Part shown: one piece after another, positions 38,534 to 39,772 of the stretch
Layout of the letters: the number at the start of each line of letters is the position of its first letter
Numbering within the stretch: position 1 is the first letter of the stretch
Sequence record: MH051917
Origin: Enterobacteria phage vB_EcoM_IME341
Reading direction: 5' to 3' (one strand)
Length of the DNA: 64,000 bases
Notes under the pieces: model-generated
Told to the model about the DNA's origin: nothing
The model's database searches: none
Seen by the model: only the letters and a program-made list of their open reading frames with translations
Made by a program: the position numbers and the translations under genes

Positions 38534-38988
38534 TGAAAACTGAAGATTTTGCTCAAGGTCTATACGTTGCTGCAAAATTCTCTGAATTAACTTTAGATGC
38601 GCTGGAAAACCTTCAGCGCACTTTAAAGGTTCCTAATCCAGTTCCTCGTGAAAAATTCCATTCTACAATCTGCTATTCAAGAGTCAACGTTCCATACACC
38701 GTTGCATCCGGAAGTTTTGAAGTTGCTTCGACCGGACATCTTGAAGTGTGGAAACATGGTGATTCTCCTGTCCTGGTATTGGTTCTCAATTCAGAGTATC
38801 TTAAATGCCGCCATCAGTATGCTCGTACCTTAGGTGCTACGCACGATTTTGATGATTATACCCCTCATATCACCCTGTCTTATAATGTAGGACCACTTAG
38901 CTTTAGTGGAGATGTCCAGATTCCTGTTGTTTTAGACAGAGAATATAAAGAACCCTTGAAGCTCGACTGGGCCGAGGATTTAAAATGA
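38533..38988 (+). CDS. 57B: gp57B; 2H phosphoesterase with two H-x-T motifs (anti-CBASS Acb1 type)
   Basis: 151 aa; HSTICY and HITLSY motifs; synteny after 57A. Confidence 0.7.
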
Positions 38989-39194
38989 AAACCTACAATG
39001 AATTCTTAACAGAAGCAATGGAATCCGCCTCTTCGGTGGCAATAGAGGTTTCCTGTACTCCTGAAGAATTTAAAGAAAGCCTGAAAGGTATAAATTGGCT
39101 TTCAGGAGAGTTATCTAATGGGGTTGCCTACTTCTTTGGCCCTCAATCAGATATAGATAGCTGGGTCTCTGAAAATTCTTCATGGCTAAAATAA
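38985..39194 (+). CDS. internal-protein-like small protein with capsid-targeting leader [11 protein letters not shown]
   Basis: leader matches the T4 IP capsid-targeting sequence ending in a gp21-type L/I-x-E site. Confidence 0.6.
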
Positions 39195-39206
39195 TTTAAA
39201 AAAGGT

Positions 39207-39246
39207 GTTTACAAGGTCTATAGGCATGATACTATAGACCTATCAA
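39207..39246 (+). promoter_or_regulatory. early promoter cassette with 10-bp inverted repeat flanking the -10
   Basis: GTTTAC 39207-12; TACTAT 39230-35; AGGTCTATAG 39214-23 pairs CTATAGACCT 39232-41. Confidence 0.7.
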
Positions 39247-39272
39247 AACAAACTAACCAAACGGAAATCAAA

Positions 39273-39497
39273 ATGAAAACTTATCAAGAATTTATTACCG
39301 AAGCTAAAAAACACGAAGACCAACTGCCGGTTGTTACAAAAACCTTTGACGGTTCATTGGCTGATTTTAAAAAAGTCCCTAGTGATAAGCTCGCTAAATT
39401 GACCGGGAGCATCGGCGAAAAAGACGGCAAGGTCACATTTTCTGCTCAAGGCACCGCTAATCTTAAAAAACTTTTGAAAGCCGCTGGCGCTGAATAA
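39273..39497 (+). CDS. internal-protein-like small protein with leader MKTYQEFITEAK
   Basis: capsid-targeting leader. Confidence 0.65.
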   Translation: MKTYQEFITEAKKHEDQLPVVTKTFDGSLADFKKVPSDKLAKLTGSIGEKDGKVTFSAQGTANLKKLLKAAGAE

Positions 39498-39499
39498 AA

Positions 39500-39772
39500 A
39501 TGAAAACATATCAAGAATTTATCGCTGAATCTATTCTTAATGAAGAAGTAAAAATTAACAAATCTGTTAAGACTATGATTGATAATATAAATCATCTCTA
39601 TAACATCGATTTGACTAATCATGTAACTTTAGGCAATAAGCGAAACTTTTTTGTATTTGATACTTCAGAACTCGACCAGAATCAAATTAACAATATTGAA
39701 CGTTTTGCTAATGAAAAAGGGCTGCGTCACGAAACGGCTGGTTATAAAAAGTATGCAATTTATTTAAAATAA
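39500..39772 (+). CDS. internal-protein-like small protein with leader MKTYQEFIAESI
   Basis: capsid-targeting leader. Confidence 0.65.
   Translation: MKTYQEFIAESILNEEVKINKSVKTMIDNINHLYNIDLTNHVTLGNKRNFFVFDTSELDQNQINNIERFANEKGLRHETAGYKKYAIYLK

Follow-up and report, generated by a model that had tools for sequence, protein, structure and literature searches.

We analyzed a 64,000-nucleotide (nt) stretch of Enterobacteria phage vB_EcoM_IME341 (sequence record MH051917; hereafter the window, 64 kb of a genome of ~170 kb) for genes that carry the capsid-targeting sequence (CTS) of the internal proteins (Ips) of phage T4. A listing of open reading frames (ORFs) and six-frame regular-expression scans yielded six ORFs on the plus strand that start with MKTY[NQ]EF[IL][TA]E, all of them at the positions given in the initial annotation; in the following they are named by these start positions or by their known homologues (Table 1). 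Five of the six lie in the recognized ip loci between 57B and trna.4 and between e and denV, and ORF 42384 lies elsewhere. A seventh copy of the leader was not found on either strand of the window, loosened patterns of the six-frame scan included. The degenerate DNA pattern ATGAARACNTAYMANGARTTYHTNDCNGAR gave six matches, exactly at the six ORF starts, and no match in 100 dinucleotide-preserving shuffles. Since the window covers only part of the genome, six is a lower bound for the phage.

All six proteins keep M1, K2, T3, Y4, E6 and F7 with a variable position 5, and residues 8–10 read LTE, ITE, IAE, LTE, ITE and ITE in the order from ORF 38985 to ORF 52068. Between 7 and 10 of 11 residues are identical to the leader MKTYQEFIAEA of T4 IPII and IPIII. 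The leader had originally been matched to IPI as well; this part does not hold, because IPI carries a divergent 19-residue variant, MKTFKEFTSTTTPVSTITE↓A (the arrow marks the cleavage position), and the match is really to IPII and IPIII.

The sequences downstream of the leader, here called cargoes, are unrelated to each other, as had been claimed. An all-versus-all blastp comparison of the six proteins from residue 12 to the end resulted in a best E-value of 0.09, and family alignments of the cargoes compared by hhalign gave probabilities of at most 3%. Hidden common ancestry of the cargoes, including T4 IPI and IPIII, was thus rejected at the sensitivity of hhalign. The mature parts are basic in five of the six ORFs (isoelectric point, pI, 8.0–9.7), with ORF 38985 as the acidic exception. 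Scans of the six proteins against Pfam, NCBIfam and PADLOC returned only sub-threshold noise. Sequence searches of the PDB gave chance-level matches for all six, none of which has a solved structure, and no functional clue for any cargo came from family-library, PDB sequence, structure and fold searches.

Table 1. Leader-bearing ORFs and associated features in the window.
Feature	Position	Strand	Remarks
gp23 major capsid protein	5900..7459	-	phage's own gp23
gp22 scaffolding core protein	7481..8296	-	phrog_237
gp21 prohead maturation protease	8327..8962	-	phrog_207 'head maturation protease', E 2.5e-76
gp68 minor core protein	8962-9390	-	phrog_1049
gp67 minor core protein	9390-9659	-	by position and acidic sequence only
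Gene 57B, conserved left border of ipI-type locus	38533..38988	+	phrog_755; synteny with T4, IME08, WG01
CTS-led ORF 38985	38985-39194	+	69 aa
Early-type promoter TTTACA-16-TACTAT overlapping inverted repeat (GGTCTATAG/CTATAGACC)	39208..39240	+	upstream of Ip8
Ip8 homologue	39273-39497	+	74 aa
Ip9 homologue	39500-39772	+	90 aa
Terminator-like hairpin and T run	42315-42343	+	upstream of ORF 42384
Late-promoter-like AATAAATA	42348-42355	+	after hairpin, upstream of ORF 42384
CTS-led ORF 42384	42384-42848	+	154 aa
Exact T4 late-promoter motif TATAAATA	50735..50742	+	ahead of gene e
IpII (T4 Ip2) orthologue	51246-51548	+	100 aa
Ip7 homologue	52068-52367	+	99 aa

Capsid-targeting leader and cleavage site

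The first 10 residues of T4 IPIII are enough for prohead loading (Mullaney & Black 1996, as reported in PMC9026906; see also PMC7697877). According to the account of the same work in PMC9026906, positions 4 and 7 of the T4 CTS serve targeting, and positions 8 and 10 serve processing by the protease gp21. These experimentally important residues (Y4, F7, [I/L]8 and E10) are kept in all six ORFs. The initial annotation had placed a gp21-type site at the end of the leader, and [I/L]-x-E is indeed present at residues 8–10 in every case. The broader site [LI]xE[AGSQ] occurs once per protein, and this single occurrence is the leader site. The expected cut is MKTYQEFITE↓A in ORFs 39273 and 52068 and MKTYQEFIAE↓S in ORF 39500; the residue after the expected cut is Ala in ORFs 38985 and 51246 and Gln in ORF 42384.

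Among the six copies of the leader we observed synonymous differences (ACC/ACT/ACA, TAC/TAT, TTC/TTT, TTA/ATT/ATC/TTG), and the regions upstream of the six ORFs are unrelated to each other. The copies are therefore not recent DNA duplicates. The loci retrieved for comparison contain 156 instances of the leader, of which all have F7 and 154 have E10. These instances comprise 131 distinct 33-mers, with four codons used for Thr3 and at least seven for Ile/Leu8. Codons vary while residues are held, and selection therefore acts on the leader peptide and not on the DNA.

The same data bear on the idea that the shared 5' end is kept for nucleic-acid reasons, e.g. to enhance the initiation of translation, as an RNA site with a regulatory function or as a hotspot of recombination. 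The leader, A/T-rich at the DNA level, is located directly at the start codon; its 33 nt were found by blastn at 2229 places in 1024 phage records, which could support homologous exchange. The free variation of third-codon positions among the 131 33-mers argues against such a role, however, as do the unrelated upstream regions and the fact that the peptide alone packages in T4 (PMC9026906). We consider this explanation highly improbable.

Head-assembly genes

The head genes lie within positions 3518–11233 of the window and also include those for the gp20 portal and gp24. gp22 contains nine [LI]xE[AGS] sites. gp23 has the sequence SFLTE↓AEIGGDHGYDAT where the propeptide junction of T4 gp23 lies, so that the phage's own major capsid protein presents the L-T-E↓A site of the leaders. 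We predict from this sequence that gp23 is processed at FLTE↓A, a site type common to the leaders. gp21 is expected to be the enzyme that cuts after E10 of each leader, and gp22 the docking partner of the leader.

We consider it very likely that the six ORFs encode T-even-type Ips that are packaged, processed and injected. The initial annotation had likewise placed them in the T4 internal-protein class, which agrees with the homology of four of the six to named Ips and with the cognate protease and scaffold being encoded in the window. We infer packaging, processing, injection and anti-restriction activity of the six products by analogy with the experiments on T4.

Genes downstream of 57B

Three of the genes follow 57B in immediate tandem, in agreement with the initial annotation. 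The start of ORF 38985 overlaps the stop codon of 57B (ATGA), and Ip9 starts 2 nt past the stop of Ip8. Because of this overlap and abutment, ORF 38985 is probably co-transcribed or translationally coupled with 57B, and Ip9 with Ip8.

Ip8 (ORF 39273) shows 81% identity to the 'ip8' record of RB15 (Z35082), and its homologue in VR5 is also annotated 'ip8'. It belongs to phrog_8765 ('internal virion protein'), was found in 106 phage records by tblastn and has a basic mature part (pI 9.5). Ip9 (ORF 39500) belongs to phrog_7673 ('internal head protein', E 3e-56), is annotated 'Ip9' in IME08 and WG01 and was found in 169 phage records (tblastn). In the RefSeq entry of IME08 (NC_014260) the gap between 57B and Ip9 is empty, though it holds homologues of ORF 38985 and Ip8, i.e. 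two unannotated CTS-led genes.

The predicted mature part of ORF 38985 comprises 59 residues with a pI of 4.1. The protein belongs to phrog_23867 ('unknown function', E 4e-43), and homologues were found by tblastn in 27 phage records, from Escherichia and Citrobacter phages and one Erwinia phage; among the records listed it is labelled hypothetical or unannotated throughout. Its core is strongly conserved (WLSG...FFGPxSDIDxW). An AlphaFold2 model (mean predicted local distance difference test score, pLDDT, 80.8) shows a small α/β fold. A Foldseek search of the PDB with this model gave no match at E ≤ 0.001; the best ones for this model and that of ORF 42384 were generic small α/β or helical-bundle folds. 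The matches of a word-index search were mostly small families on phage-like contigs, with no bacterial homologue identified among them. Based on its sequence, ORF 38985 is a second candidate for an unrecognized internal protein, with a narrower distribution than ORF 42384.

With respect to T4, the genes after 57B occupy the same locus as the gene of IPI* (Ip1) and are of similar size. There are three genes in the window where T4 has one, however, and no protein of the window resembles IPI by sequence or profile. The life cycle that we propose here for the genes of the window is that of IPI*, i.e. CTS, gp21 cleavage and injection.

The early-type promoter upstream of Ip8 overlaps an inverted repeat, and T4 ipI, ipII and ipIII have the same promoter-plus-inverted-repeat design upstream. 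Two near-identical cassettes of this kind (39208–39240 and 39776–39809) flank the Ip8-Ip9 pair, with TTTACA ... TACTAT and arms GG(T/G)CT(A/C)TAG / CTATAG(A/C)CC. Both resemble the promoter-early stem-loop (PeSL) cassettes, which have been proposed to mediate modular shuffling (PMC2839356).

Genes around e and denV

ORF 51246 is the IpII orthologue. Its mature part is 94% identical to that of T4 IPII, and it shows 100% identity to 'ipII' of IME08; the family (phrog_7857) was found in 196 records by tblastn. It resembles T4 IpII in its length (100 aa), in its type of leader and in adjoining the lysozyme gene e, whose end is overlapped by the start of ORF 51246 by 14 nt. Compared with T4 IpII, the leader has two changed residues (N5, T9), and the gene order differs as well: in the window IpII overlaps e and is followed by denV, whereas the order in T4 is e-ipIII-ipII-denV.

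Gene e is preceded by TATAAATA, an exact copy of the T4 late-promoter motif, at which late transcription of e and the overlapping IpII gene is likely, as judged by sequence, to start.

ORF 52068 follows directly after denV. It is 95% identical to 'ip7' of VR7 and 48% identical to Ip7 of WG01 (E 2.5e-20), belongs to phrog_2667 ('internal head protein') and was found in 282 records (tblastn). Ip7 is located beside denV in the window, whereas it lies in the 57B locus in WG01, which indicates that the cassette moved between loci. In PHROGs, the four named ORFs (51246, 52068, 39273 and 39500) all fall into 'internal head/virion protein' families.

ORF 42384 at a third locus

ORF 42384 comes after the tRNA/stable-RNA cluster, with the stable-RNA region on one side and e.8 on the other. 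Its mature part is basic (pI 9.5), and it belongs to phrog_2280 ('unknown function'). Homologues were found by tblastn in 509 phage records. In 468 of these they are full-length with 71–99% identity, among them records of Dhakavirus (WG01, QL01), Tequatrovirus (teqhad) and other T4-like phages, and every one of the records listed has the gene as 'hypothetical' or unannotated. In the loci inspected (the window, WG01 and teqhad) the family follows the tRNA/stable-RNA cluster. The AlphaFold2 model (pLDDT 73) is all-helical with two domains and gave no Foldseek match in the PDB at E ≤ 0.001.

A full HMMER scan with ORF 42384 against 1.84 billion representatives resulted in only ~10 clusters. The full-length relatives carry a leader-like N-terminus, e.g. 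MLKFNEFLAE, MLEYSEFLKE or MKFKEFLIE. On this basis, ORF 42384 is a good candidate for a comparatively conserved internal protein that has been overlooked. The deep searches with ORFs 38985 and 42384, which mostly met small families on phage-like contigs, also returned a few weak or partial matches that lack the leader. Neither the word-index search nor the full HMMER scan identified a bacterial homologue of ORF 42384.

At the same site IME08 and IME281 have a variant of 205 aa that carries the same extended leader. The IME08 gene, orf129, is annotated hypothetical and encodes a protein with ~25% identity to ORF 42384. IME08 orf129 and the homologue P0003 share the extended leader exactly and are then ~25% identical. 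Judged from these sequences, the junction between leader and cargo behaves as a module boundary.

The PCR surveys of 1994 reportedly covered the ipI locus only. In the recent literature two Ip loci are recognized (PMC12373910). We tentatively propose ORF 42384 as a widespread, unrecognized family of internal proteins at a third locus and ORF 38985 as an unusual, acidic internal protein, and regard this as possible rather than probable.

Alternatively, only IpII, Ip7, Ip8 and Ip9 might be packaged, and the leaders of ORFs 38985 and 42384 might be a by-product of cassette recombination, with the conserved 5' end as a linker, on cytoplasmic or functionless proteins. This would fit the lack of an internal-protein annotation for both ORFs in the records listed, the acidic nature and tiny size of ORF 38985 and the position of ORF 42384 outside the two literature loci. 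However, both families keep the leader over their whole known range, including members below 50% identity, whereas a leader without use would be expected to decay. Even the distant leaders (the three named above, of which MKFKEFLIE is one residue shorter, and MKSFNEFINE) retain the aromatic residue at position 4, F at 7, a hydrophobic residue at 8 and E at 10. In addition, the homologues of ORF 42384 in teqhad, WG01 and IME08 are preceded by the exact late-promoter motif TATAAATA at the homologous site, as expected for a virion protein. The T4 CTS loads almost any protein, acidic green fluorescent protein included (PMC7697877, PMC9026906). We therefore regard it as distinctly unlikely that these two products stay outside the head, and retain all six ORFs as putative Ips.

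Several further features were observed upstream of ORF 42384. The ~260 nt between tRNA-Arg and this ORF (42085–42345) show 89–90% identity to parts of the T4 stable RNAs rnaD/rnaC; no Rfam family covers this stretch, and the terminator-like hairpin lies at its end. A 223-aa endonuclease-like ORF (41376–42047, phrog_15137) lies in the interval from tRNA-Met to tRNA-Arg and extends with its 3' end into the tRNA-Arg gene (42010–42084). It recalls the homing endonuclease segB inside the tRNA cluster of T4.

Relatives and cassette exchange

A megablast search assigned the region of the window to the genus Dhakavirus (JS98, IME08, WG01, QL01, JS10), with segments of 93–99% identity. No single record covers the region, which is thus a mosaic. 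The gene order is that of T4 (57A, 57B, ip locus, trna.4-.2, tRNAs, stable-RNA region, e.8 ... nudE, e, ip locus, denV). The content of the Ip loci differs between close relatives, with cargoes swapped between near-identical phages.

In WG01 the CTS-led genes number nine: a tandem of four behind 57B (ORF147, 146, 145 and 144), followed by ORF139, 118, 117, 115 and 114. Two of these, ORF114 and ORF115, lie downstream of denV and are annotated hypothetical (NC_031928); they start with MKTYQEFITES and MKTYQQFITES, respectively. IME281 has six CTS-led genes within 16 kb and IME08 at least five; a scan of positions 1–50000 of the IME08 genome found no CTS-led gene in that part. The family had been described as expanded, which is correct relative to T4 only: within the genus, six is a typical number.

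In IMG/VR, a degenerate-pattern scan followed by a protein regular expression yielded 133 unique CTS-led proteins in 96 stretches; the pattern had MAR at codon 5 and misses leaders with Asn at this position, so that these counts are lower bounds. The 133 proteins form 45 cargo clusters unrelated by blastp, and each protein of the window clusters with other CTS-bearing homologues.

Some environmental IMG/VR contigs of up to 250 kb encode long (282–610 aa), very basic proteins with the same leader (MKTYQEFISEAKKCWPGYKKKG...), which have no Pfam match. A DUF6267 protein of 406 aa on IMG/VR contig 3300008625_000103 carries the leader MKTFAEFLTE; its domain begins at residue 13 (Pfam E 2e-121). A large domain may here have been taken up as capsid cargo, or the match may be coincidental.

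Proposed mechanism and function

Based on the leaders, the head genes and the experiments on T4 we propose the following course of events. During prohead assembly the CTS would dock the protein onto the scaffolding core of gp22, gp67 and gp68. gp21 would then cut after Glu10 at [I/L]-x-E, and the mature protein would stay in the head together with the DNA. Upon infection it would be ejected with the genome and could act ahead of any phage gene expression. Its most likely job would be to inhibit host nucleases that act on modified phage DNA, i.e. type IV restriction enzymes of the GmrSD family, with each of the unrelated cargoes being specific for another enzyme variant. The cargoes lie in hyperplastic loci (behind 57B, around e and denV, and past the tRNA/stable-RNA cluster), where related phages would exchange cassettes that have the leader in common.

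The T4 proteins provide the functional background for this proposal. Ip molecules number on the order of 1000 per T4 head and are embedded in its DNA (PMC3012670, PMC7697877); the ip genes are non-essential, and the T4 Ips are ejected into the host with the DNA (PMC12373910). IPI* acts as an inhibitor of the GmrSD enzyme of E. coli CT596 (PMC3012670). For T4 Ip2 and Ip3, Silas et al. 2025 demonstrated inhibition of BrxU/GmrSD of ECOR21 and of a two-gene GmrSD of ECOR17, respectively, with no cross-protection (PMC12373910). In the same paper the Ips of related phages, recognized by their signal sequence, are put at 'at least 10', and GmrSD variants are proposed as the targets of all genes in the Ip loci (PMC12373910). 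By orthology with T4 Ip2, ORF 51246 would most likely inhibit an enzyme of the BrxU/GmrSD-ECOR21 type.

For T-even phages, Repoila et al. 1994 (cited in PMC3012670 and PMC12373910) reported polymorphic Ips in which only the CTS is shared. The Ip7, Ip8 and Ip9 homologues of the window resemble this group, Ip4-Ip10 (Repoila, Tetart, Bouet & Krisch 1994), in having only the CTS in common. Ip4-10 gave no reproducible inhibition of the GmrSD systems tested. A similar principle is found in T4 Alt and in the ejection proteins of giant phages (SPN3US, phiKZ-like), which enter the prohead by means of a cleavable propeptide, are processed at x-x-E by a gp21-like protease and are ejected into the host (PMC9026906, PMC5694885). 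Their propeptide is a different one, their cargoes are much larger and in some cases enzymatic, and they are unrelated to the six proteins of the window.

For Dhakaviruses an RB69-like pathway of cytosine modification has been proposed, in place of the glucosylated hydroxymethylcytosine (glucosyl-hmC) of T4 (PMC13326640). In IME08 (22675–26882 and 37315–37879) a block of RB69-like genes (orf39-43) is annotated near uvsX, and a-gt.2 to a-gt.4 are present with no a-gt gene. This gene content, which lies outside the window, is consistent with a DNA modification that differs from T4 glucosyl-hmC. With such a modification, Dhakavirus Ips may face type IV enzymes with other specificities.

Several points weigh against the assignment of all six ORFs as packaged antirestriction proteins. 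The acidic ORF 38985 departs from the classical Ips, which are basic, and among the records listed it is never named an Ip. Neither the structure nor the fold searches hinted at a function of ORF 38985 or ORF 42384. The late-promoter motif before ORF 42384 has one mismatch (AATAAATA), and Ip8, Ip9 and Ip7 have no TATAAATA nearby, so that late synthesis is assumed for these three. In the literature searched, neither proteomics of virions nor sequencing of N-termini was found for this phage or any Dhakavirus, and Ips are not discussed in Petrov 2010. An anti-GmrSD role of Ip7, Ip8 and Ip9 is unproven.

The products could also be packaged and have a mainly structural or physico-chemical role, such as charge neutralization, DNA organization or an aid to ejection, as the basic Ips were historically viewed. 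The basic mature parts of five of the six proteins and the high number of Ip molecules in the T4 head are in line with this, as are the results for Ip4-10 and the conservation of ORF 42384 (71–99% identity in 468 records), which is unlike a fast-evolving arms-race gene. On the other hand, all three T4 Ips have specific GmrSD targets and the ip genes are dispensable (PMC12373910), one member of the present set is acidic, and unrelated, swapped cargoes fit specific antagonists better than a generic polycation. A primarily structural function is thus unlikely, and we favor specific inhibition of restriction enzymes.

Biological significance

The multiplicity and diversity of Ip genes in T-even relatives has already been published, and four of the six genes already have names; ORFs 38985 and 42384 are under-annotated candidate members. 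The understanding of the system is unchanged by our analysis, which flags a systematic under-annotation in public genomes of T4-like phages. If ORF 42384 is indeed an internal protein, its conservation would imply that its target or role varies less than do the GmrSD variants on which Ip1-3 act. Since Ips enter the cell together with the DNA, they could disarm host defences ahead of phage gene expression. A phage with six of them provides a ready candidate anti-defence set for target screens; besides the IpII orthologue, it comprises three named Ips that are orphans and two families that carry no Ip label in the records listed.

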